From contig CAJWFK010000005.1 of NCBI GenBank assembly GCA_913031125.1, positions 15,671 through 79,670 on the forward strand: a stretch of 64,000 nucleotides of DNA, read 5' to 3'. Shown piece after piece: positions 46,655 to 56,041 of the stretch. Made by a program: the position numbers and the translations under genes. This DNA is from an uncultured Woeseia sp. GTDB taxonomy: Bacteria; Pseudomonadota; Gammaproteobacteria; Steroidobacterales; Woeseiaceae. The notes beneath the pieces are model-generated. The model made no database searches, was not told where the DNA came from, and worked only from the letters and a program-made list of their open reading frames with translations. Positions within the stretch are counted from its first letter, which is position 1, and each line of letters opens with the position of its first letter.

Positions 46655-47347
46655 ATGTCAGACGAGGAAGACGACATAATACTTGCTGAGCTGCCCGATG
46701 ATGAACTCGTTGAGCAGATGTGGGATGACCTCTATGATGGCCTCGCAGAAGAAATTGCCGAAGGTACTGAGATCCTTTTGGCTCGCGATTGGGAGCCAAA
46801 AAAAGTACTTGATGACGCTCTAGTCGGTGGGATGAACATAGTTGGAGAGGATTTCCGCGACGGGATTTTATTTGTTCCTGAAGTATTGTTGGCAGCAAAT
46901 GCAATGAAAGCTGGGATGGCTATCCTGCGACCTCTTCTTGCGGAAACCGGTGCGAAACCGATTGGCAAAATGGTTATTGGCACGGTCAAAGGAGATATCC
47001 ACGACATAGGGAAAAATCTCGTCGGGATGATGATGGAAGGAGCTGGCTTCGAAGTTATCGATCTTGGAATAAATACTGATGCGGATGCCTATCTGGAGGC
47101 TCTAGAGAAGGAAAAGCCGGAAATTCTCGGAATGTCGGCATTGCTGACAACTACAATGCCATACATGAAGGTTGTAATAGATACGATGAAAGAGCGTGGC
47201 ATTCGCGAAGAATACATAGTGTTGGTTGGTGGTGCTCCGTTAAATGAAGAATTTGGGAGTGCGATTGGAGCTGACGCTTATTGCAGGGACGCAGCAACTG
47301 CCGTTGAAGTAGCCAAGGATTTGGTTACGCAGCGGCGCGCATCTTAA
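46655..47347 (+). CDS. Corrinoid (B12-binding) methyl-carrier protein
   Basis: 230 aa. Helical cap plus Rossmann B12 domain with DxHxxG (GDIHDIGKN), SALLTT, LVGGAPL. Unusually acidic N-terminal extension. GAAGGA Shine-Dalgarno. Confidence 0.9.
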   Translation: MSDEEDDIILAELPDDELVEQMWDDLYDGLAEEIAEGTEILLARDWEPKKVLDDALVGGMNIVGEDFRDGILFVPEVLLAANAMKAGMAILRPLLAETGAKPIGKMVIGTVKGDIHDIGKNLVGMMMEGAGFEVIDLGINTDADAYLEALEKEKPEILGMSALLTTTMPYMKVVIDTMKERGIREEYIVLVGGAPLNEEFGSAIGADAYCRDAATAVEVAKDLVTQRRAS

Positions 47348-47356
47348 ATTGGTACG

Positions 47357-47959
47357 ATGGAAAAAGGCGCTCTGCTTATCGCATGCGGGGCACTTGCCAA
47401 GGAATTGGTTGAGCTGCAACGACGAAACCACTGGAACTTCTTGCGGATCCAGTGCCTTCCGGCCGAACTGCACAACACACCAGAAGAAATTCCTCGTGCC
47501 GTTGAAGAAGTTGTTCAGATTCAAAAAAACAATTTCCAACATATATTTATTGCCTACGCCGACTGTGGAACAGGCGGCAAGCTAGACGAAGTTGTTAACA
47601 AATATGGCCTCCGGCGCATTCCAGGTGCTCACTGCTACGAATTTTTTGCAGGAATATCCATATTTCACGAACTCAGTAATGAAGAAATAGGCACATTTTA
47701 TCTAACCGATTTCCTAGTGCGACACTTTGACCGGTTAGTAGTAGGGAGTCTCGGCTTGGACCGAACCCCAGAATTGAAAAAAATGTATTTTGGGAACTAC
47801 CGGCGGCTAGTCTATTTGGTGCAACAAAAATCGGATGATTTATCGCAAATGGCCCGTGACCACGCAAAATTTCTAGGACTGGAATATATGGAAAAGTACA
47901 CAGGTCTAAAACCGTTTGAAAAAAACCTTAAAGAGCAGGCTATTCAATGGCTAAACTAA
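47357..47959 (+). CDS. DUF1638-family protein (function unknown; associated with corrinoid methyltransferase loci)
   Basis: 200 aa. Assignment by recollection of DUF1638 features (…YADCGTGG…, …YLTDFLVRHFD…) and by operon context. Confidence 0.5.
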   Translation: MEKGALLIACGALAKELVELQRRNHWNFLRIQCLPAELHNTPEEIPRAVEEVVQIQKNNFQHIFIAYADCGTGGKLDEVVNKYGLRRIPGAHCYEFFAGISIFHELSNEEIGTFYLTDFLVRHFDRLVVGSLGLDRTPELKKMYFGNYRRLVYLVQQKSDDLSQMARDHAKFLGLEYMEKYTGLKPFEKNLKEQAIQWLN

Positions 47960-48252
47960 TTAGCATTTACTGGCGGGACATCCCGTCGCATGTGGTTGGG
48001 AAAGCGGGACGTGCTAAAGCGAAAAAAGAGCTAGAACCGCGGTTTGCGAAAGCAATTGATCGCGCTGCAATGCGTGCCGGACGAGGTTCCAGCGACGCAT
48101 ATCTGGCCGACTGGCGACGAGAATCGGAAATCGTCTCTGGCGATCTTGAAGCACTCGTAGCAGAACGCGTAGCAAAATTGGAAAGTGAATTCGACGAGCA
48201 ATATCTGGAATCCGTTGTAAAAGCAGGTGGTCTCATAGGAGAAGTAAAGTAA
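47947..48252 (+). CDS. Small 'virulence factor'-domain protein (function unknown)
   Basis: 101 aa. ISIYWRDIPSHV… N-terminus as I recall for the family found beside pterin-binding/B12 genes. Overlaps the upstream gene by 13 nt. Confidence 0.45.
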   Translation: MAKLISIYWRDIPSHVVGKAGRAKAKKELEPRFAKAIDRAAMRAGRGSSDAYLADWRRESEIVSGDLEALVAERVAKLESEFDEQYLESVVKAGGLIGEVK

Positions 48253-49155
48253 ATGACTCACACGATCATAAGTTCGGCTAATAAGGACGTAATCATCGGA
48301 TTCGATCGTCCTTTCGTTGTCATCGGCGAGCGAATTAATCCGACCGGACGAAAACTACTGTCGGAAGAAATGAAAAATGGTGACTATAGCCGTGTCCAGT
48401 CAGATGCACTTGCTCAGGTAGAAGCCGGTGCACATGTTTTGGATGTGAACGCCGGCATCCCGCTCACTGATGAGCCAGCGATCCTCGCCGATTGTGTTCA
48501 GTTACTGCAATCCATCACAGATGTACCTCTATCTATTGATTCCTCAATTGTTGAGGCACTAGAAGCTGGTCTTAAAGTCTATCAAGGCAAAGCGTTGCTC
48601 AATTCAGTAACAGGCGAAGAAGAACGCCTAGAGCGCGTATTACCTTTAGTGAAGAAATATGACTGTGCCGTGGTAGCAATATCCAATGATGATACGGGTA
48701 TATCAGAAGACCCTGACGTTCGCTTTAATGTGGCAAAGAAAATCGTGGAGCGGGCAAGCGATCATGGCATTCCTTCAAGTAATATTGTCGTAGACCCGCT
48801 CGTCATGCCTATCGGGGCTATTAACACTGCAGGCCAACAGGTAATGCAGATCGTCAAGCGCCTTCGCAAAGAGTTGAGAGTCAATACTACTTGCGGTGCA
48901 TCAAACCTGAGCTTCGGCTTGCCTAATCGGAATGGCTTAAATTCAGCATTCATAAGCATGGCAATCAGTGCCGGGATGACGTCTGCAATTACCAATCCGC
49001 TACATAAAGAACTAATGCAAGCGGTTCGAGGCGCCAACGTAGTAATGGGAAATGATCCTGAATGTACCCAGTGGATCCGTAACTACCGTGACCCTCAATC
49101 CGCCCAATCATCCAGGGCCGGCCAGCGTCGTCGTCGTCGTCGAGCCAATAGGTAG
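48253..49155 (+). CDS. Methyltetrahydrofolate:corrinoid methyltransferase (pterin-binding, MtgA/AcsE/MetH-domain-like)
   Basis: 300 aa. DHPS-like TIM barrel blocks GERINPTG, LDVNAG, LNSVTGE, GASNLSFGLP. C-terminal QRRRRRRANR tail. Confidence 0.85.
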   Translation: MTHTIISSANKDVIIGFDRPFVVIGERINPTGRKLLSEEMKNGDYSRVQSDALAQVEAGAHVLDVNAGIPLTDEPAILADCVQLLQSITDVPLSIDSSIVEALEAGLKVYQGKALLNSVTGEEERLERVLPLVKKYDCAVVAISNDDTGISEDPDVRFNVAKKIVERASDHGIPSSNIVVDPLVMPIGAINTAGQQVMQIVKRLRKELRVNTTCGASNLSFGLPNRNGLNSAFISMAISAGMTSAITNPLHKELMQAVRGANVVMGNDPECTQWIRNYRDPQSAQSSRAGQRRRRRRANR

Positions 49156-49157
49156 CT

Positions 49158-51158
49158 ATGTCCGCGATAAATGATCCCCTTATAGTATTTTCGCCGTCTG
49201 GAAAACGCGGTCGTTTCCCGTTAGGAACACCAGTACTAGAGGCTGCACGACGCCTAGGTGTAGATATTGACTCTGTCTGCGGCGGTCGCGCACTTTGTGG
49301 CCGATGCCAAATTACTGTAGCGGAAGGCGAATTACCAAAACACGGTATTGTCTCAAGTACGGATAATTTGTCGCTCACCGGTGAAGCAGAAGCAAGACAT
49401 CGGGAAAAGCGAGGTCTAGGTAGCGATCGGCGCCTTAGTTGCCAGGCGACGCTGCAGGGAGATATCGCAATCGATGTCCCGGAATCCAGCCAGGTACATA
49501 GGCAGGTCGTTCGCAAACCTCATGAAGCGCATGACATCGATGTTAACCCAGTCACTCACGCTTATTATGTGGTGGTAGACAAACCGGATATGCACGACCC
49601 CAGTGGGGACCTCGAACGATTGCGCATGGCCTTAGCAAGGGACTTTGAGCTTGAAGATTTAGGAGTAGATTTCTCCGCTTTACAACGACTGCAAGAAACC
49701 ATGCGAAAAGGGGATTGGAAGATCACCGCGGCTGTTCGTGATGCACGAAACATCATTGCTGTATTTCCTGGGTTTCAAGAACGCTTTTATGGCGTAGCTA
49801 TCGATGTTGGTTCAACCACAATTGCCGCTCACCTTTGCGATCTAACCAGTGGGCGAGTTTTGGGAAGTGCCGGACGTATGAACCCTCAAATCCGTTTTGG
49901 TGAGGATCTAATGAGTAGGGTGTCATACACCATGATGAACCCGGGCGGTGATCGGGAGCTAACTTCAGTAGTCAGAGAAGCAATTAACGAGCTTATCAGC
50001 CAAGTGGCTGCAGACTGTAAGATTGATACTAACCTTATTGTCGAGGTAACAATCGTTGGAAATCCTATAATGCAACACCTCGTGCTGGGTATTAACCCGA
50101 TAGAACTAGGCACAGCGCCCTTTGCCCTAGCTTCAGACCGCTCAGTTAGTCAGCCTGCACGAGATATTGGAATTTCAATTAATCCCGGGGGCTTTGTGTA
50201 CGCGTTACCCTGTATTGCGGGTCACGTGGGCGCTGATACGGCAGGTGTTTTGCTTGCCGAGGCACCTTTCAAGCGGGACGAAGTTTCGCTCATTGTCGAC
50301 GTCGGAACCAATGCGGAAATATTACTAGGAAACCGAGAGCGGTTACTTGCTGCTTCGAGCCCCACTGGCCCGGCCTTCGAAGGTGCTCAAATAAGCGCTG
50401 GCCAGAGGGCTGCTCCGGGTGCAATCGAGAGGGTCCGGGTTGACCACACGACGTTAGAACCCAAGTTTAAGGTCATAGGTTGCGATCTCTGGTCTGATGA
50501 AGCGGCCTTTGAAGATGGGCTACCGTCCTCTGGTGTCACGGGCATTTGCGGCTCCGGCATCATCGAAGTCGTCGCGGAACTCTACCTGGCTGGAGTAATT
50601 CAGCACGACGGTATAATTGCCGGAGATGCTAAAAAACGGTCAGACCGAATTAAAACTGATGGCCGAACGTTTAGCTACACATTGTTCGATGGGGAACCCG
50701 CAGTAACGATCCACCAAAATGATGTCAGGGCGATTCAGCTTGCTAAAGCAGCACTCTATGCGGGCGCGCGTCTGTTAATGGAAAAATTAGGTGTCGATAC
50801 AGTCGATCGAATCCGTCTCGCGGGCGCATTCGGCGCCCATATAGATGTCAAATACGCGATGGTCTTAGGTTTGATTCCAGATTGTGCAATCGATCAAGTT
50901 TCTTCAGCCGGCAACGCGGCAGGAACAGGGGCAAGAATCGCTCTTCTCGACAGGACCTCCCGCCAGTTGATTGACCAGCAAACCCGAAAAGTCGAAAAAA
51001 TCGAGACCGCGGTAGAAGATAGATTTCAACACCATTTCGTGTCAGCAATGGCAATTCCGCATGACACAGATCCCTTTTCTAACCTGAAGGAAGAAGTAGG
51101 CCTTCCCGAACGCAAAAGAACTATCAAGACGAGCAAAAAACGCAGGAGAAGTCGATGA
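49158..51158 (+). CDS. RACo-type reductive activator of corrinoid proteins (N-terminal [2Fe-2S] ferredoxin plus ASKHA ATPase domain)
   Basis: 666 aa. Plant-type ferredoxin cysteines (CGGRALCGRC…C). ASKHA phosphate motifs (AIDVGSTT, VDVGTNAE). C-terminal KKRRRSR tail. Confidence 0.8.
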   Translation: MSAINDPLIVFSPSGKRGRFPLGTPVLEAARRLGVDIDSVCGGRALCGRCQITVAEGELPKHGIVSSTDNLSLTGEAEARHREKRGLGSDRRLSCQATLQGDIAIDVPESSQVHRQVVRKPHEAHDIDVNPVTHAYYVVVDKPDMHDPSGDLERLRMALARDFELEDLGVDFSALQRLQETMRKGDWKITAAVRDARNIIAVFPGFQERFYGVAIDVGSTTIAAHLCDLTSGRVLGSAGRMNPQIRFGEDLMSRVSYTMMNPGGDRELTSVVREAINELISQVAADCKIDTNLIVEVTIVGNPIMQHLVLGINPIELGTAPFALASDRSVSQPARDIGISINPGGFVYALPCIAGHVGADTAGVLLAEAPFKRDEVSLIVDVGTNAEILLGNRERLLAASSPTGPAFEGAQISAGQRAAPGAIERVRVDHTTLEPKFKVIGCDLWSDEAAFEDGLPSSGVTGICGSGIIEVVAELYLAGVIQHDGIIAGDAKKRSDRIKTDGRTFSYTLFDGEPAVTIHQNDVRAIQLAKAALYAGARLLMEKLGVDTVDRIRLAGAFGAHIDVKYAMVLGLIPDCAIDQVSSAGNAAGTGARIALLDRTSRQLIDQQTRKVEKIETAVEDRFQHHFVSAMAIPHDTDPFSNLKEEVGLPERKRTIKTSKKRRRSR

Positions 51159-52009
51159 GAACAACCACGACATCTCAAATGAATAACCATGAGCTCATTA
51201 ATGATTTGCGTGAGGCTTATATGGAGGTCATTCCAACGCCAAATATTGAGGAAAAACTTAGAATTCTACAACCGGACTCATATGTTGCCGTAACATGTTC
51301 ACCAACTAAAGGAGTTGATGAAACACTCGATCTTTCCGAAAGGTTAGTCGACCAGGGATTTAGGGTTGCCCCGCATATTGCAGCCAAATGCGTACGTAAT
51401 GAAACGCACCTAAGCCATATTATGCAGAAGCTTGATGCTTTGAAAATTGACAGCATATTCGTTCCCGGTGGCGATCGTGCCGAGCCGCTAGGGGATTTCG
51501 ATACAGCCTTCGAACTGCTTAAAGCAATTAACAATTTTGACCATGGCCTTAAAGAAATCGGTATTGCTGCTCACCCAGAAGGACATCCCGATATCGCTGA
51601 CGAAATGCTCCTAAAGGAGCTAGAGAAAAAAAAGAATCTAGCCCAGTACATCGTCACACAAATGTGCTTTGATGCCGATGCTTTAGGCAAATGGTTGGTG
51701 GATATAAGCAGGCGCGGGATAAAGCTGCCGGTGTGGATTGGGTTACCAGGTGCTATAGAACGAACCCGATTGTTTAAGACTTCTCTCAGAATCGGCGTTG
51801 GCGACTCGCTACGCTTTCTGCGTAAAAAATCAGTCGTGGCCGCCGAGCTCATGAAATCTAGTGTCTACCGTCCAGATGATTTGGTAACCGATATTGCTCA
51901 GTATAAAAATGTAGCTGATACAAATATTGCCGGCTACCACATTTTCTGTTTCAACCAGGTTGAGAGTACGGAGAAATGGCGCAATGAAACAATTGCGCGA
52001 TTGCAATGA
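51155..52009 (+). CDS. metF: Methylenetetrahydrofolate reductase
   Basis: 284 aa. MTHFR-like blocks (VAVTCSPTKG, VAPHIAAK, IFVPGGD, AAHPEGHP, VTQMCFD). 4-nt overlaps at both ends. Confidence 0.8.
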   Translation: MRTTTTSQMNNHELINDLREAYMEVIPTPNIEEKLRILQPDSYVAVTCSPTKGVDETLDLSERLVDQGFRVAPHIAAKCVRNETHLSHIMQKLDALKIDSIFVPGGDRAEPLGDFDTAFELLKAINNFDHGLKEIGIAAHPEGHPDIADEMLLKELEKKKNLAQYIVTQMCFDADALGKWLVDISRRGIKLPVWIGLPGAIERTRLFKTSLRIGVGDSLRFLRKKSVVAAELMKSSVYRPDDLVTDIAQYKNVADTNIAGYHIFCFNQVESTEKWRNETIARLQ

Positions 52010-53523
52010 CTCGACGAGGAACCCGACAGCGACGTATTGCGGGCGCAATTAAACAGCTGCCCTGGCAAAAAGTAAGAAACCCATGGGCGCCAGTTGACGT
52101 GTTATGTGAAGACTCTGTAGAAATAATTTTGAATGCAGCGTTAGATATTCTGCAGGAACAAGGGTTTCGATTTCTGCATGACGAGAGCAGGCATCTTCTT
52201 GAAAGTGCTGGTGCTAACGCCGCAAATGATGATGGTATGACAAGACTGGACCGTGATTTCGTCTTGGAAAATATCGAAAGCGCACCATCAAGTTTCCAGC
52301 TACTGGCACGAAATCCCAAGCATTCGCTGGATGTCGGTGGTAACAACATTATTTTCTCTTCAATCGGTGGCCCTGCTTTTGTAAGTGATATGGATAATGG
52401 CCGGAGAGCAGGGACATACAAGGATCTGTGCGACTATTTTCGCGTAATTCAGGGCCTGAACATCATTCATCAGGAAGGGGGCGGTTGTTTTGAGCCAATG
52501 GATCTTCCCCCCGAATCCCGTCATCTAGACCTTTATTTTGCTCAACTGACGCTACTGGACAAAAACGCCCAAGCCTATGCACTTGGTCGCGAACGCACCA
52601 TTGACTGTCTCGAGATGACCGGTATTGCTTTAGGCAAAGACAGGGAAGAACTTACCGAGCAACCCGCAATACTTGCAATCATAAATACTAACTCTCCAAT
52701 GCAACTTGATGTGCCGATGTCAGAGGCTGTATTAGAACTCGCTGCCGCTAATCAAGTCTGCTGCATTACACCGTTTACGTTAGCTGGATCCATGAGCCCA
52801 GCGACCCTTGCCGGGACGCTCGCTCAGCAAACAGCCGAGGTACTTGCCGTAGTAACACTTACCCAAATTGTGCGTACCGGGGCACCCGTAATGTATGGTG
52901 CATTTGCTTCCAACGTTGATATGCAAAGTGGTGCACCGGCACTCGGCACGCCAGAATACGCGAAGATGGCACTCGCGAGCGCACAGATTTCACGGCGGCT
53001 TAGGCTGCCATTTCGGTCAAGCAACACAACAACCTCAAACACGGTCGATGTGCAAGCTGCTTATGAAGGCGGCATGTCATTGTGGAGTGCCATCCTAGGC
53101 CACACCAATTTGGTAAACCATGCTGCTGGCTGGCTGGAAGGAGGGCTGACCGCATCATTTGAAAAACTAATCATGGATGCGGAAATGCTGCAAATGATGG
53201 CAGCTACATTGCAACAACTCGTGGTCAATACTGAAGAACTTGCCCTCGAAGCAATCGCTGAAGTCCCGCCGGGCGGGCATCATTTTGGTACCGCACATAC
53301 GCTGGAACGTTATGAAAACGCCTTTTATTCGCCGATTCTTTCGAGCCGTCAGAACTTCGAAGCATGGCAAGAAGATGGCTGTAAAGATGCGACAGAGCGG
53401 GCGAATATAATATGGAAGCAGCTACTATCCGAATATGAACAGCCATTTATTGAGCCATCTGTAGAGGAAGCACTCCGCAGTTATATAGACAAACGCAAAA
53501 CTACAATAGACAAAATGATGTAA
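52006..53523 (+). CDS. MttB-superfamily (trimethylamine methyltransferase-like) methyltransferase, non-pyrrolysine, paralogue 1
   Basis: 505 aa uninterrupted ORF. Arg-rich N-terminus (MTRRGTRQRR…) and EDSVEIILNAALDILQEQG opening, typical of proteobacterial MttB homologues as I recall. Confidence 0.8.
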   Translation: MTRRGTRQRRIAGAIKQLPWQKVRNPWAPVDVLCEDSVEIILNAALDILQEQGFRFLHDESRHLLESAGANAANDDGMTRLDRDFVLENIESAPSSFQLLARNPKHSLDVGGNNIIFSSIGGPAFVSDMDNGRRAGTYKDLCDYFRVIQGLNIIHQEGGGCFEPMDLPPESRHLDLYFAQLTLLDKNAQAYALGRERTIDCLEMTGIALGKDREELTEQPAILAIINTNSPMQLDVPMSEAVLELAAANQVCCITPFTLAGSMSPATLAGTLAQQTAEVLAVVTLTQIVRTGAPVMYGAFASNVDMQSGAPALGTPEYAKMALASAQISRRLRLPFRSSNTTTSNTVDVQAAYEGGMSLWSAILGHTNLVNHAAGWLEGGLTASFEKLIMDAEMLQMMAATLQQLVVNTEELALEAIAEVPPGGHHFGTAHTLERYENAFYSPILSSRQNFEAWQEDGCKDATERANIIWKQLLSEYEQPFIEPSVEEALRSYIDKRKTTIDKMM

Positions 53524-53535
53524 AAGGCTAAATCC

Positions 53536-55071
53536 ATGCGCCCTAACTTAACAGTCCTAAGTAACCAACAAATCAACAAGATTCTCGATGAAGCCAAGCG
53601 AATAATGGCCGAGGTCGGCATGGAAATACGGGGTGAACCGTTAAGGAGGCGTTTACTCGATCATGGCCTAAAAGCCGATAAGAATACCAAACGGATTCTG
53701 TTTCCGACCGAGATTGTCGATAAAGCTATTACCGATGCTCCGTCTGCGTTTACGCTCTTTGATCGAGATGGTAATCCATACACCGAAATTGGTGGAAACA
53801 ATGTGCACTATGTTCCGGGTTCGAGTGGCCTGAAGATTCTTGATCACAGAACCGGGGAAACTCGTCTTGCAGATTCGACCGATTTCATAGAATACGCTCG
53901 TCTTTGTGATGGTTTGGAAAACATCGCCTACCTAGCTACAGCATTCTCAACAAATAGGGATATCGAGTCGCAAGTATCGGATGCCTGGCGACTCTACATG
54001 ACCCTGACAACCTCAAAAAAACCCGTTGTTTCGGGCGCTTTCAGTGAACATGGCACTCCCCGCATGGTGGATATGATGCAAATGTTCAGGGAAGACCGCG
54101 CTGATTTAATTGCCAAGCCCATGTCTATATTCACAATAACGGCCACAGGCAATTTCCGCTATGGGGAGGATTCCTGCCAGAATCTTCTGGACTGCGTTGA
54201 AGCGGGAATACCAATCGAAATTGTGCCTGTGACTCTAATGGGCCTTATAGCGCCAGTTACACTTGTCGGCGCACTTGTTTTTCACTGTGTGGACGTACTA
54301 ACCGGAATCACTATGGCCCAAGTTATAAAACCGGGAGCACCAGTATTATTTGGAGGAGCACCAGCTACATTCCATATGAAAGCCGCGAGTTCTCCGATGG
54401 CAGCAATAGAAACCCAACACCTCAATGTAGCGTACATTGCCGTTGCTAAATCGCTTAATTTACCAACTCAAGCATACATGGCTTTGTCTGATGGAAAATT
54501 CATCGATGCGCAGGCTGGTGGTGAAACTTTTTCAAGTGCGCTGCTTGCTGCCATTGCCGGAGTAAATTCAGTATCAGGCCCCGGTATGCTCGATTTTGTT
54601 TTAACATTTAGTCTGCCAAAATTAGTTTTCGACAATGAAATATGCGGTCAATCACTACATTTTGTTCGTGAAATTGACATTATCGATGACCTGCCGACGG
54701 GGGAACTAGTCAGTGACTTGATGAAAGATGACCACCTGATTACCAGCCCTCACACACTCCAGCACTGGCCAAAAGAACTTTATCTGACACAACCGGTGAT
54801 CGACCGAGAGAATCGGGAAAGCTGGGAAAAAGCAGGGAGCAGGACACTAGAACAGCGTGCTACTGAAGAGGTGGAAAAACGATTAAGTGAATATCAGCCG
54901 ATAGAAACAGATTCGGAAATCGATAAAGCTATGCGTGATCTCATAACTAGTGGTTTCGAGAGTCAAGAGACGCTGCCAGAATTACCTCCACCACCAGAGC
55001 CAAAAACTACCAGTGCCCCAGCCCGCAAGAGAGGCCGCAAAATGCGCAAGAGGAGCAGGTCCGTAAAATAG
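53536..55071 (+). CDS. MttB-superfamily methyltransferase, non-pyrrolysine, paralogue 2 (divergent)
   Basis: 511 aa uninterrupted [27 protein letters not shown] opening and TIM-barrel-length body align loosely with paralogue 1. Pro-rich linker plus [16 protein letters not shown] tail. Confidence 0.75.
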
Positions 55072-55099: not shown

Positions 55100-56041
55100 C
55101 TATCGAGCTTGAGAAACTAAACATCGCTTGATTGCACGAATATCTGCTGGGGAGGTTCGGCAGCACCCGCCGATGAATTTTGCCCCTGCTTTAAACCAAG
55201 CCTCTACGTTAAAATCATTTTCCAAATCGCATGATGTGCCAGACCAACTATTGTCTTCCGTGTGATAAGTTTCACCTGAGTTCGGATATACAACGACTAG
55301 CTTATCTGTTGCGCCAGTGCGAACTTCATCAATCAAAGGCAAAATAAACGCTGGGGACGTACAGTTAATACCAACGGCATGCACACGGCGATGTCCGTCA
55401 AATAAGCGAGCAACATCCCGCAACATTGAACCATCACTGATTTTGAGTTCATCTCGGCAGGCAAATGAAATCCACGCCGGTGTTGACATTTTTTCCAATA
55501 GACCGCATAAAATTTCTGCTTCACGAAAATTCGGAATAGTTTCTACCGCTAAGACATCAGCACCGCTGGCATCAAATACCTTGAGTCGTGATAAGTGAAA
55601 TTCTGTGAGCGCCTCATCTGAAATATCGTAATCTCCAGTATATTCCGAACCATCATGCATCGTTGCACCATAAGGTCCGACACTTGCAGCAACGATCGGG
55701 TGTATTTCGGGAGGATAAATACTACTTTCAAGATATTCCGCACAAGCAGTCTGAGATAATTTTACGGCGCTTAAAATTAACTGGTCAGCCTCTTCAGTAC
55801 TATAGCCAAGCGATATAAATCCTGCACGACTTGCCTGATAGCTAGCACTAATGATGATTTCAGCACCAGCACTTAAGTAAGCATAATGTGCGTCAATAAT
55901 CGCTTGTGGATCACTAATCAATAATGCGGCAGACCATAAATCACCAGCGATATCATGCCCCATGGACTCTAACTGAGTCGCAAATCCTCCATCCAGAATA
56001 ACCGGGCCATCGCGTTCTATTAATTGTTCAAATTTCGTCAT
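55100..56041 (-). CDS. mmuM: Homocysteine S-methyltransferase
   Basis: ILDGGFATQLE N-terminal block, Zn-Cys motifs (…INCTSP…, GGCCRTSP). Start set at ATG 56041; the longer ORF would overlap the upstream gene. Confidence 0.85.
   Translation of the reverse strand: MTKFEQLIERDGPVILDGGFATQLESMGHDIAGDLWSAALLISDPQAIIDAHYAYLSAGAEIIISASYQASRAGFISLGYSTEEADQLILSAVKLSQTACAEYLESSIYPPEIHPIVAASVGPYGATMHDGSEYTGDYDISDEALTEFHLSRLKVFDASGADVLAVETIPNFREAEILCGLLEKMSTPAWISFACRDELKISDGSMLRDVARLFDGHRRVHAVGINCTSPAFILPLIDEVRTGATDKLVVVYPNSGETYHTEDNSWSGTSCDLENDFNVEAWFKAGAKFIGGCCRTSPADIRAIKRCLVSQAR

Follow-up and report, generated by a model that had tools for sequence, protein, structure and literature searches.

Charge-matched termini on the corrinoid carrier and its client enzymes in a proteobacterial methyl-transfer operon

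The operon and its charged termini

The window analyzed here is a 64,000-nt stretch of DNA from an uncultured Woeseia sp. (Woeseiaceae; GCA_913031125.1, contig CAJWFK010000005.1, positions 15,671-79,670 of the forward strand), and the features studied lie at positions 46,655-55,071 of it (Table 1). The genes form an operon of the known MtgBCD, or split methionine-synthase, corrinoid methyl-transfer system. This system, as MtgBCDE/split methionine synthase, has been described in Ruegeria pomeroyi and Phaeobacter inhibens (Mausz et al. 2025, PMC12478193; Price et al. 2018, PMC5764234), and the Woeseiaceae operon resembles theirs in its component set: an MtgC-type carrier, pterin-binding MtgD, MttB-family MtgB, a RamA-like/DUF4445 (RACo) activase, DUF1638 and MetF2. 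In contrast to those two organisms, the genes here belong to a gammaproteobacterium and sit together in a single compact operon that includes two MttB paralogues, with MtgE located outside the window. The charge-matched termini of these proteins are a new, testable feature within a known B12 methyl-shuttle system of aerobic bacteria. Neither PMC12478193 nor PMC5764234 mentions an acidic carrier N-terminus or Arg-rich termini, and the pairing of an acidic carrier with Arg-rich enzymes is conserved and, it seems, so far undescribed.

Table 1. Genes and terminal features of the operon (positions in the window)
Feature	Position	Strand	Evidence
MtgC-type corrinoid carrier, 230 aa, cap + Rossmann B12-binding domain	46655..47347	+	Pfam B12-binding_2 (residues 19-91), B12-binding (105-216)
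Carrier acidic N-terminal region, residues 1-40	46655..46774	+	Sequence; AlphaFold2 pLDDT profile
DUF1638 protein, no charged tail	47357..47959	+	Pfam PF07796
Virulence_fact (PF13769), small dipolar protein, no Arg tail, rival partner for the tails	47947..48252	+	Pfam
MtgD, methyl-THF:corrinoid methyltransferase (pterin-binding)	48253..49155	+	Pfam Pterin_bind
MtgD C-terminal linker + Arg block, residues 281-300, ending SSRAGQRRRRRRANR	49093..49152	+	Past end of solved MeTr homologues
RACo / RamA-like reductive corrinoid activase (Fer2 + linker + middle + ASKHA domains)	49158..51158	+	Pfam
RACo C-terminal tail, residues 637-666, ending ERKRTIKTSKKRRRSR	51066..51155	+	Past end of 3ZYY
MetF2-like methylene-THF reductase, no tail	51155..52009	+	Pfam MTHFR
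MttB-1, non-pyrrolysine MttB-superfamily methyltransferase (MtgB-like)	52006..53523	+	Pfam MTTB, 594 bits
MttB-1 N-terminal Arg-rich extension, residues 1-29, starting MTRRGTRQRRIAGAIKQ	52006..52092	+	Outside TIGR02369
MttB-2, second MttB-superfamily methyltransferase, separate lineage, no N-extension	53536..55071	+	Pfam MTTB, 251 bits
MttB-2 C-terminal Pro-rich linker + basic block, residues 472-511	54949..55068	+	Past solved MtgB/MttB structures

A preliminary description of this DNA reported an acidic N-terminus on the carrier and basic termini on four enzymes, and all five are present where it placed them. The carrier, which shares 72-78% identity with its counterparts in cultured Alphaproteobacteria (Sinorhizobium, Paracoccus, Aminobacter and Pseudorhodobacter), has 13 D/E and no K/R in its first 28 residues as originally counted, 17 D/E and no K/R in its first 40, and a net charge of -27 over the whole protein. 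Since the Pfam B12-binding_2 match starts at residue 19 and alignments with solved carriers (1Y80, 7XCN_M, 4JGI, 3EZX) begin at query residues 20-24, the protein has about 14-19 extra residues. These had been taken for a disordered acidic tail. The acidity is evident, but in the AlphaFold2 model (moderate overall, pLDDT 73.9, from a shallow alignment) most of the region is ordered and belongs to the cap domain. Only residues 1-6, with pLDDT <50, are predicted to be floppy, making an acidic tip. The next stretch, residues 7-14 (DIILAELP), is ordered, the mean pLDDT over residues 11-20 is 95, and the first cap helix, itself acidic, spans residues 15-27.

The enzyme termini extend beyond what is covered in solved homologues, all of which end before the tails and show neither the acidic nor the basic features. 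MtgD (376 bits against NCBIfam NF005719, cutoff 259) aligns with MeTr structures 2YCK/1F6Y to about residue 280 of its 300, and MttB-2 with the MtgB/MttB structures 9YCE/2QNE/7XCL to residue 471 of 511. The window RACo, below the AcsV equivalog cutoff (400 vs 800 bits), shares its activase architecture with Carboxydothermus hydrogenoformans RACo-CoFeSP (PDB 3ZYY, 4C1N), with 3ZYY aligning to residues 9-636 of 666, but the solved protein stops where the 30-residue basic tail starts. The Arg-rich N-terminus of MttB-1 lies inside the Pfam MTTB profile, which covers the protein from residue 3, and is excluded from the Pyl-type model TIGR02369, which begins at residue 30.

When the 51 ORFs of the window are ranked by terminal charge, proteins of this operon take the top three places for basic C-termini and the first place for acidic N-termini. 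Net charge over the C-terminal 16 residues is +8, +9 and +10 for three of its proteins against +4 for the next best, while the first 20 residues of the carrier carry -10 against -3 for the runner-up. Calculated post hoc, the probability of all three top C-termini belonging to the four named enzymes is 4/20825. With the charge extremes of the window confined to the operon, the tails are not a habit of the proteome. Basic tails had been assigned to exactly four enzymes; all four carry them, but the list was incomplete, as MtgE (PRK07534 type, 478 bits), the fifth client predicted by the published model and encoded outside the window, also has a linker and Arg block in 10 of 11 cases. The reported lack of tails on DUF1638, Virulence_fact and MetF holds both in the window and in orthologues (median C-terminal net charges of +1, -1 and 0, respectively), and an Arg block was not found on MmuM.

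Conservation, outgroups and gain of the termini

We compared the operon with 80 related genomes of Alpha-, Beta- and Gammaproteobacteria (39-72% GC), cultured strains, and the nearest outgroup operons (L081, L083, L088, L090, L092 and L096-L165). The acidic carrier N-terminus, which follows the pattern D[IL][VD]L..L.D.EL[VT]EQ[MV].DDLY[DN]G, occurs in 53/53 loci. The Arg block of MtgD is found in 75/75 orthologues and the Arg/Lys block of RACo in about 79/80, regardless of the downstream gene, with median C-terminal net charges of +5 and +4. All 16 MttB-2 orthologues have PELPPPPE followed by GRRGRxGRRRR, and 44 of the 46 non-MttB-2 paralogues of ingroup loci have the N-extension (median 45 aa, 9 R/K, net +5). 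The Arg pattern is present in 95%, 84% and 100% of client tails vs 6.6% of background ORF ends. Cultured examples with these features include Azoarcus, Aminobacter, S. meliloti (Sinorhizobium) and Paracoccus aminovorans.

Arg blocks are absent from the outgroup methyltransferase (0 of about 64-69), RACo (0/13, Arg/Lys block) and MttB (0/17), and the acidic N-terminus was found neither in 13 non-redundant outgroup carriers from a metagenome scan nor in the carriers of L081, L083, L088, L090 and L092. The expectation that acidic carriers and Arg-rich enzymes co-occur in orthologous operons is thus borne out in both directions: they are found together throughout a large proteobacterial clade and are missing together in about 70 nearest-outgroup loci. 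The further idea that tails covary in length and charge fared poorly: correlations inside the clade are only weak, with Spearman coefficients of 0.16 and 0.32 and no correction for phylogeny. The MtgD tree points to a single ancestral origin for the MtgD tail and the acidic carrier N-terminus, so that their co-occurrence mostly reflects one evolutionary event and not many independent ones. In the MttB family, where MttB-2 forms a separate clade in a neighbor-joining tree, the block is N-terminal in one clade and C-terminal in another with tail-less outgroups between them, and it was apparently gained twice. In the outgroup L081, a system with this same layout of several clients (MttB-Cor-MT-RACo-DUF1638-MttB) has no tails at all, showing that they are not required for the chemistry.

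A candidate docking handle and its precedents

These sequences suggest a mechanism in which MtgC of the proteobacterial lineage gained a strongly acidic N-terminus, consisting of the floppy acidic tip and an ordered acidic extension of the first cap helix, while each carrier-engaging enzyme (MtgD, RACo, the MttB-type methyltransferases acting on substrate, and MtgE) would have gained, at one end of the chain, a flexible low-complexity linker terminating in a basic block of roughly 6-9 Arg (in some cases Lys) residues. The acidic cap would be captured by the basic block of whichever client is near. The comparisons establish that the termini are present, conserved, specific to the clade, limited to client enzymes and under selection as amino acids; we infer that the blocks bind the cap and affect either its capture or its displacement. 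The acidic/basic pairing is likely to help MtgC locate its partners, and a shared electrostatic docking handle made up of cap and blocks is in our view the likeliest mechanism, at about even odds. The tails could then be a non-covalent stand-in for the linkers of single-chain MetH, which has the same modules (Hcy, folate, cap, B12) and must likewise present a single cobalamin domain to several active sites in turn. The MetH modules, however, are linked covalently, whereas the proteins here are separate and the tails would act as non-covalent tethers.

There is precedent in methanogens, where a cap or N-terminal addition of MtaC/MttC supplies the main stabilizing, specificity-determining methyltransferase contacts: the displaced cap domain provides the main stabilizing contacts in MttB-MttC (PDB 7XCN), leaving cobalamin exposed, and an extra N-terminal carrier domain docks into an enzyme groove in MtaB-MtaC (PDB 2I2X) (PMC9842639). 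In contrast to these folded-domain, one-partner interfaces between proteins with neither an acidic N-terminus nor Arg blocks, one acidic handle would here serve Arg blocks on five enzyme folds. Acyl carrier protein and the acidic tip of SSB are small acidic carrier or hub elements read by basic surfaces of many clients, and EDDIILAEL of the carrier resembles the C-terminal acidic-hydrophobic tip of SSB, DDDIPF. The resemblance is an analogy with no homology implied; folds and chemistry are unrelated, and the basic element in those systems is a folded surface patch instead of an Arg block attached at the chain terminus through a flexible linker.

Alternative explanations

Arg-rich low-complexity tails generally bind polyanions, and it is conceivable, though unlikely, that the Arg blocks bind another shared anionic partner that co-localizes the clients on a scaffold, with the acidic carrier recruited indirectly or otherwise used. 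Candidates are DUF1638, polyphosphate, nucleic acid, anionic membrane lipid and the acidic C-half of Virulence_fact, a possible alternative partner missing from L081. Virulence_fact is dipolar: over 68 sequences the conserved N-half has a median charge of +5 and the C-half one of -6. Its occurrence in 67/80 ingroup loci and not in L081 dates its gain to roughly the node where the tails arose. In Gemmatirosa, a weak fusion of carrier and Virulence_fact (22.9 bits, cutoff 25) hints that Virulence_fact works with the carrier. Yet the Gemmatirosa RACo and MtgE lack Arg blocks and its carrier lacks the acidic N-terminus, Paracoccus aminovorans has all tails with no Virulence_fact ORF in its 22-kb cluster, and the basic half of Virulence_fact is conserved while the acidic half is not. 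A generic scaffold also leaves unexplained why the carrier alone has a strongly acidic novelty specific to the clade.

The tails might instead act within their own enzymes, in solubility, oligomer stabilization or auto-inhibition, with the acidic cap tuning cap-Rossmann dynamics and no contact between tail and carrier. With the exception of MtgD at +1, every client enzyme has a net negative charge (-10 to -22 overall), so that a basic tail might fold back onto the protein that bears it, and N- and C-terminal regions drive oligomerization in solved Pyl-type MttB (PMC9842639). We regard this as improbable: it needs the same solution in five unrelated folds, only in the acidic-carrier clade, while outgroup homologues are equally acidic without tails. 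The block also switches termini inside the MttB family, and the long Pro/Gly/Ala-rich linkers ahead of it suit tethers that reach out better than elements that fold back.

Very improbable, in our estimate, is a multivalent condensate or metabolon of oligomeric Arg-block clients and polyacidic carrier that would channel the carrier and shield Co(I) from oxygen in aerobes. Solved client homologues are indeed oligomers, such as the MttB hexamer (PMC9842639), all clients bear the same type of sticker, and the carrier concentrates its acidic charges as described above. The carrier nevertheless seems to present a single compact acidic site, a limit on valency, and L081 adjoins a Rieske ring-hydroxylating oxygenase gene and is probably aerobic too, yet has no tails.

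It is scarcely credible that the tails are neutral or nucleotide-driven by-products of GC-rich codon drift, Shine-Dalgarno sequences and translational coupling, or mis-called gene ends: short basic tails can emerge neutrally, and the metF AGGAGA Shine-Dalgarno is, as the preliminary description cautioned, encoded within the RACo tail codons of the window, but MtgD and RACo orthologues keep their tails over 39-72% GC, Arg codon usage in the tails equals that of the gene bodies, RACo tails remain where metF does not follow, no operon gene lies downstream of MttB-2, the C-termini are unambiguous from stop codons, and no other, unrelated genuine-looking neighboring gene of the loci ends in such a basic C-terminus. 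RBS, GC-composition and proteome-wide origins were rejected on the basis of orthologue retention, codon usage, independence from the downstream gene and the charge extremes of the window. Selection, as read from these comparisons, acts on residues and not on nucleotides. At low GC, K substitutes for R in RACo and MttB-2, and the K+R median stays at 7-8.

Operon content and relation to the MtgBCDE system

Eight tightly packed or overlapping genes fill positions 46655-55071 of the window on the plus strand, and the database names of their matches point to Woeseia or Woeseiaceae. Their component set matches both the split methionine synthase described in Phaeobacter (Price et al. 2018, PMC5764234) and MtgBCDE of Ruegeria pomeroyi, a glycine betaine demethylase and methionine synthase (Mausz et al. 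2025, PMC12478193). Judged by homology, the proteins are, in the published nomenclature, MtgC (the carrier), MtgD, MtgB, the RamA-like activase, DUF1638 and MetF2. The assignment to the MtgBCDE system follows a stand-alone carrier with both expected domains, a stand-alone MtgD, a RamA-like/DUF4445 (RACo) activase together with the DUF1638 protein, and two copies of MtgB from the non-pyrrolysine MttB superfamily, predicted to be the substrate methyltransferases. The carrier is 72-78% identical to those of Sinorhizobium, Paracoccus, Aminobacter and Pseudorhodobacter. It scores below the cutoffs of the anaerobe-type glycine betaine MtgC models (207.7 bits versus 370 for NF047996 and 173.2 versus 310 for NF047995), in agreement with the published phylogenetic distinctness of proteobacterial MtgC (PMC12478193).

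Features of the operon and the adjoining gene (positions in the window)
Feature	Position	Strand	Evidence
Corrinoid carrier (MtgC type), cap and Rossmann B12 domains	46655-47347	+	Pfam PF02607, PF02310
DUF1638 protein		+	Pfam
Virulence_fact small protein	47947-48252	+	Pfam PF13769
MtgD, pterin-binding methyl-THF:corrinoid methyltransferase		+	Pfam Pterin_bind; NF005719, 376 bits versus cutoff 259
RACo, RamA-like/DUF4445 activase		+	Pfam Fer2, RACo_linker, Raco_middle, RACo_C_ter (ASKHA)
MTHFR-like reductase		+	Pfam/NCBIfam
Two non-pyrrolysine MttB-superfamily methyltransferases (MttB-1, MttB-2)		+	Pfam PF06253, 594 and 251 bits
PYLIS_3 match inside MttB-2	54484-54583	+	Rfam, 44 bits versus gathering score 38, E 1.5e-6
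MmuM-type homocysteine S-methyltransferase, convergent to the operon	55100-56041	-	PF02574; MmuM equivalog, 357 bits versus cutoff 215

Both MttB reading frames are free of in-frame stop codons, and they score 284 and 302 bits against TIGR02369, the model of the Pyl-dependent trimethylamine MttB, where the cutoff is 525. The PYLIS_3 match in MttB-2 has no UAG to act on because the reading frame holds no stop; it probably reflects coding-sequence homology to Pyl-type mttB, and fits a lineage of MttB-2 separate from the N-extended MttB paralogues.

The MtgE module (PF02574, PRK07534/Bmt type) was not found in the window, in which a tblastn search with a true MtgE matched the MmuM gene alone, at 25% identity; MtgE may lie elsewhere in the genome. 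No PF02574 gene other than that of MmuM occurs in the window. MmuM works without a corrinoid, so we rejected this gene both as MtgE and as a tail-less counter-example to the pattern described below. The window thereby holds a corrinoid-independent route to methionine next to a corrinoid-dependent operon. An orthologue of this MmuM was found in only one related locus (L004, 62% identity). Five alphaproteobacterial loci (L041, L043, L051, L070 and L071) have a tail-less PF02574 gene of a homocysteine methyltransferase-like protein of ~300 aa, ~8-10 kb downstream of RACo; the protein is 21-23% identical to the window MmuM.

Charged termini of the carrier and its clients

The preliminary description had paired an acidic N-terminus on the carrier with basic termini on the four enzymes that engage it (its clients), at the N-terminus of MttB-1 and the C-termini of MtgD, RACo and MttB-2, and we confirmed every terminus that it quoted, each at its reported position. 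The first 28 residues of the carrier contain 13 D/E and no K/R, and the first 40 contain 17 D/E and no basic residue; solved homologues align from residues 20-24 and the Pfam cap model from residue 19. The C-terminal tails lie beyond the solved homologues, which stop at about residue 636 of 666 for RACo (3ZYY), at about 280 of 300 for MtgD (MeTr) and at 471 of 511 for MttB-2 (MtgB/MttB). The Pfam MTTB model includes the Arg-rich N-terminus of MttB-1, which the Pyl-type model leaves out by starting at residue 30. We rejected a Tat signal on inspection, as this terminus lacks a hydrophobic h-region and reads RRSRRGGGG...RRAAR in the paralogues. Among the 51 ORFs of the window, the three highest C-terminal charges (+8, +9 and +10; next +4) belong to operon proteins, and the lowest N-terminal charge is that of the carrier (-10; next -3). 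These extremes all fall within the operon and the remaining window proteins have no such termini, so we rejected a proteome-wide habit.

A genome scan with RACo identified 80 related loci (62-79% identity) in Woeseiaceae, other Gammaproteobacteria, Burkholderiales and Alphaproteobacteria, in which orthologues were assigned by blastp on stop-to-stop ORFs. The acidic carrier and basic client termini are kept together across these loci. At the MtgD C-terminus, an Arg block (e.g. GRGRREGGxRRR or RGRRxGRRRR) follows a low-complexity linker of A/G/P/E in 75 of 75 loci, and a linker with an Arg block ends every complete copy of RACo (about 79 of 80). MttB-2 carries PELPPPPE followed by GRRGRxGRRRR in all 16 orthologues, while 44 of the 46 other MttB paralogues have an N-terminal extension (median 45 residues, with 9 R/K); the two without one result from the start-codon choice of our script. 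The acidic carrier N-terminus is present in 53 of 53 loci, with a median of 11 D/E and 0 K/R across the 30 residues preceding a conserved Gly, and it keeps a hydrophobic pattern, D[IL][VD]L..L.D.EL[VT]EQ[MV].DDLY[DN]G. The same features occur in the cultured Azoarcus sp. KH32C, Aminobacter aminovorans, Sinorhizobium meliloti and Paracoccus aminovorans.

The pattern is restricted to the clients. As had been claimed for the window, the presumed non-client proteins have no tails, with a median C-terminal net charge of +1 for DUF1638, -1 for Virulence_fact and 0 for MetF. The Arg pattern is found at 95% of MtgD ends, 84% of RACo ends and 100% of MttB-2 ends, versus 6.6% of background ORF ends. Apart from one 316-residue ORF in locus L068 (6.6% Arg), the other neighboring ORFs with such a C-terminus are all globally Arg-rich, of the kind that arises when high-GC DNA is read out of frame or antisense. 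The suggested covariation in tail length and charge was not borne out to the same degree, as acidic and basic counts correlate weakly within the clade without correction for phylogeny, and we gave this correlation no weight as evidence. One 386-aa ‘carrier’ (P0001) that scored above the self-hit was rejected as internally duplicated, most likely an assembly artefact. In four metagenome representatives (P0127, P0154, P0214 and P0250), the MtgD reading frame stays open into the N-terminus of RACo, and the Arg block links the two domains; these apparent fusions may have arisen through errors of sequencing or gene calling, as their downstream parts look frameshifted.

If the tails serve docking, they should also be found on MtgE, the homocysteine-binding module that has to dock with MtgC in the published model (PMC12478193). 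This prediction, absent from the preliminary description, held in 10 of 11 cases. In six Burkholderiales loci, a PRK07534-type protein (478 bits versus cutoff 338) has a C-terminal extension of 52-60 residues with RRGSGRR or RGRGRGRR. In four Alphaproteobacteria, the Arg block of Bmt/MtgE lies at the C-terminus or within two residues of it (ARERRRRA in S. meliloti, KRERRGRRG in Pseudorhodobacter, AARRGARRRGTT in Terrarubrum and ARERSRRRG in Shinella). The Bmt/MtgE homologue of P. denitrificans (49% identity), located on a chromid (L168), has no Arg block, and MtgC was not found on that replicon. This homologue may not be a carrier client, and could represent a natural control, a non-client without the tag, provided that MtgC is really missing from the genome.

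Origin and distribution of the tails

Compositional and translational origins of the tails were both rejected. The tails are kept from 39% to 72% GC, and Arg codon usage is alike in tails and gene bodies. In the RACo and MttB-2 tails, Lys replaces Arg as GC drops (rho -0.42 and -0.63) with the K+R median constant at 7-8, and the MtgD tail is essentially all Arg throughout the GC range. No gene follows the MttB-2 tail, which closes the operon, and RACo tails are kept with or without metF behind them. The overlap of the RACo tail with an AGGAGA ribosome-binding site, raised earlier as a possible cause, is therefore incidental.

Outside the clade, the termini are absent. Among 1.84 billion cluster representatives searched with MtgD, stand-alone homologues at 52% identity or less stop a few residues past the W..YR motif. 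One outgroup operon (L081) has the same MttB-carrier-MT-RACo-DUF1638-MttB layout with shorter proteins (217, 281, 609, 486 and 490 aa) and neither acidic nor basic termini; such termini are also missing from L083, L090 (Desulfobacterales), L092 and Gemmatirosa (L088). Another 70 loci came from a metagenome scan that started from the L081 methyltransferase. In these, no Arg block was found at ~64 methyltransferase ends or 10 RACo ends, no Arg-rich terminus in 11 MttB ORFs, and no acidic N-terminus among 13 non-redundant carriers, whose medians are 4 acidic and 4 basic residues. As the tail-less L081 shows, the chemistry does not depend on the tails.

In a neighbor-joining tree of the MtgD core, the tail-bearing sequences form one contiguous block, as read from leaf order and direct inspection, since automated tail flags erred on Comamonadaceae tails and on two mixed-charge outgroup ends. 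Both the MtgD tail and the acidic end of the carrier appear to have been gained once each, in an ancestor, and kept across three proteobacterial classes, which limits the statistical weight of the acidic/basic co-occurrence. In the MttB tree, the clade with the C-terminal block (MttB-2) and that with the N-terminal block are separated by tail-less outgroup MttBs, indicating two gains at opposite termini. Independent weight for the pattern comes from these two gains, together with the presence of the Arg block on five unrelated folds.

Proposed docking role and alternative explanations

The termini had been described as disordered electrostatic tethers, which suits the enzyme side better than the carrier side. 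An AlphaFold2 model of the carrier (31 sequences, mean pLDDT 73.9) has pLDDT below 50 at residues 1-6 only; residues 11-20 average 95, a short turn covers 10-12, and the first helix of the cap runs from 15 to 27. The acidic ‘tail’ is thus predicted to extend the cap domain as a highly acidic, mostly ordered element whose short tip is floppy, and not to form a long disordered tether. The client elements, with Gly/Ala/Pro-rich linkers of variable length and the block at the end, look like flexible tethers. Previous structural work showed that the cap domain is displaced upon docking, that the main stabilizing contacts between MttB and MttC come from the cap, and that an extra N-terminal carrier domain docks in an enzyme groove in MtaB-MtaC (PMC9842639), all of which favors a shared docking handle. 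We propose that the acidic cap would be captured by the basic block of whichever client is near, raising encounter rates and possibly stabilizing the cap-off state. Such docking by complementary charge would resemble that of ACP, and the tails would act as a non-covalent stand-in for the linkers that tether the modules of MetH covalently. Co-occurrence, restriction to clients and conservation are in line with this proposal; within a known system, the conserved tails are a well-supported feature and their docking function is plausible.

Recent work established MtgBCDE as a major route by which abundant marine and soil bacteria demethylate glycine betaine and synthesize methionine, and the tails are undescribed in both MtgBCD papers (PMC12478193, PMC5764234) and in full-text searches of the open-access literature. 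How one small carrier is shared among several methyltransferases and a reductive activase is the question that they touch, and a conserved, clade-specific and charge-matched pair of elements offers a concrete, readily testable handle on it in tractable organisms. If confirmed, the Arg block could serve as a sequence tag for further unannotated MtgC clients in genomes, and the system would clearly illustrate how a split enzyme can use short linear motifs in place of covalent links between domains.

Among alternatives to carrier docking, the Arg blocks might bind another anionic partner, with the dipolar Virulence_fact protein as the main candidate. Across the window and 67 loci, it combines a conserved basic N-half (median +5) with an acidic C-half that is less conserved (median -6), and it is not present in the tail-less L081. 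However, the Paracoccus cluster has all tails and no Virulence_fact, and Gemmatirosa has a weak Virulence_fact-like segment fused to its carrier, yet a system without tails. In this possible fusion, on plasmid 1 of Gemmatirosa kalamazoonensis (L088:11950-12942), the carrier ORF runs into a PF13769-like segment (22.9 bits versus cutoff 25), which may hint that the small protein works with the carrier. In Alphaproteobacteria, the Virulence_fact gene accompanies metF, mtgD and RACo, not the carrier.

The basic tails might instead fold back intramolecularly onto the net-acidic enzymes. Another and, in our assessment, rather improbable alternative is that the Arg blocks of oligomeric clients and the polyacidic MtgC cap act as multivalent ‘stickers’ that bring MtgBCDE together in aerobes as a dynamic metabolon or condensate, channeling the carrier among five enzymes and shielding oxygen-sensitive Co(I); if true, the modular tethering of MetH would have been reinvented non-covalently.

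On plasmid IV of Paracoccus aminovorans, genes for a Dyp-type peroxidase and a family 1 encapsulin shell (L094:20811-22001) lie ~7 kb from the mtg cluster. The two proteins form a standard cargo-shell pair and probably have no connection with the Arg tails.
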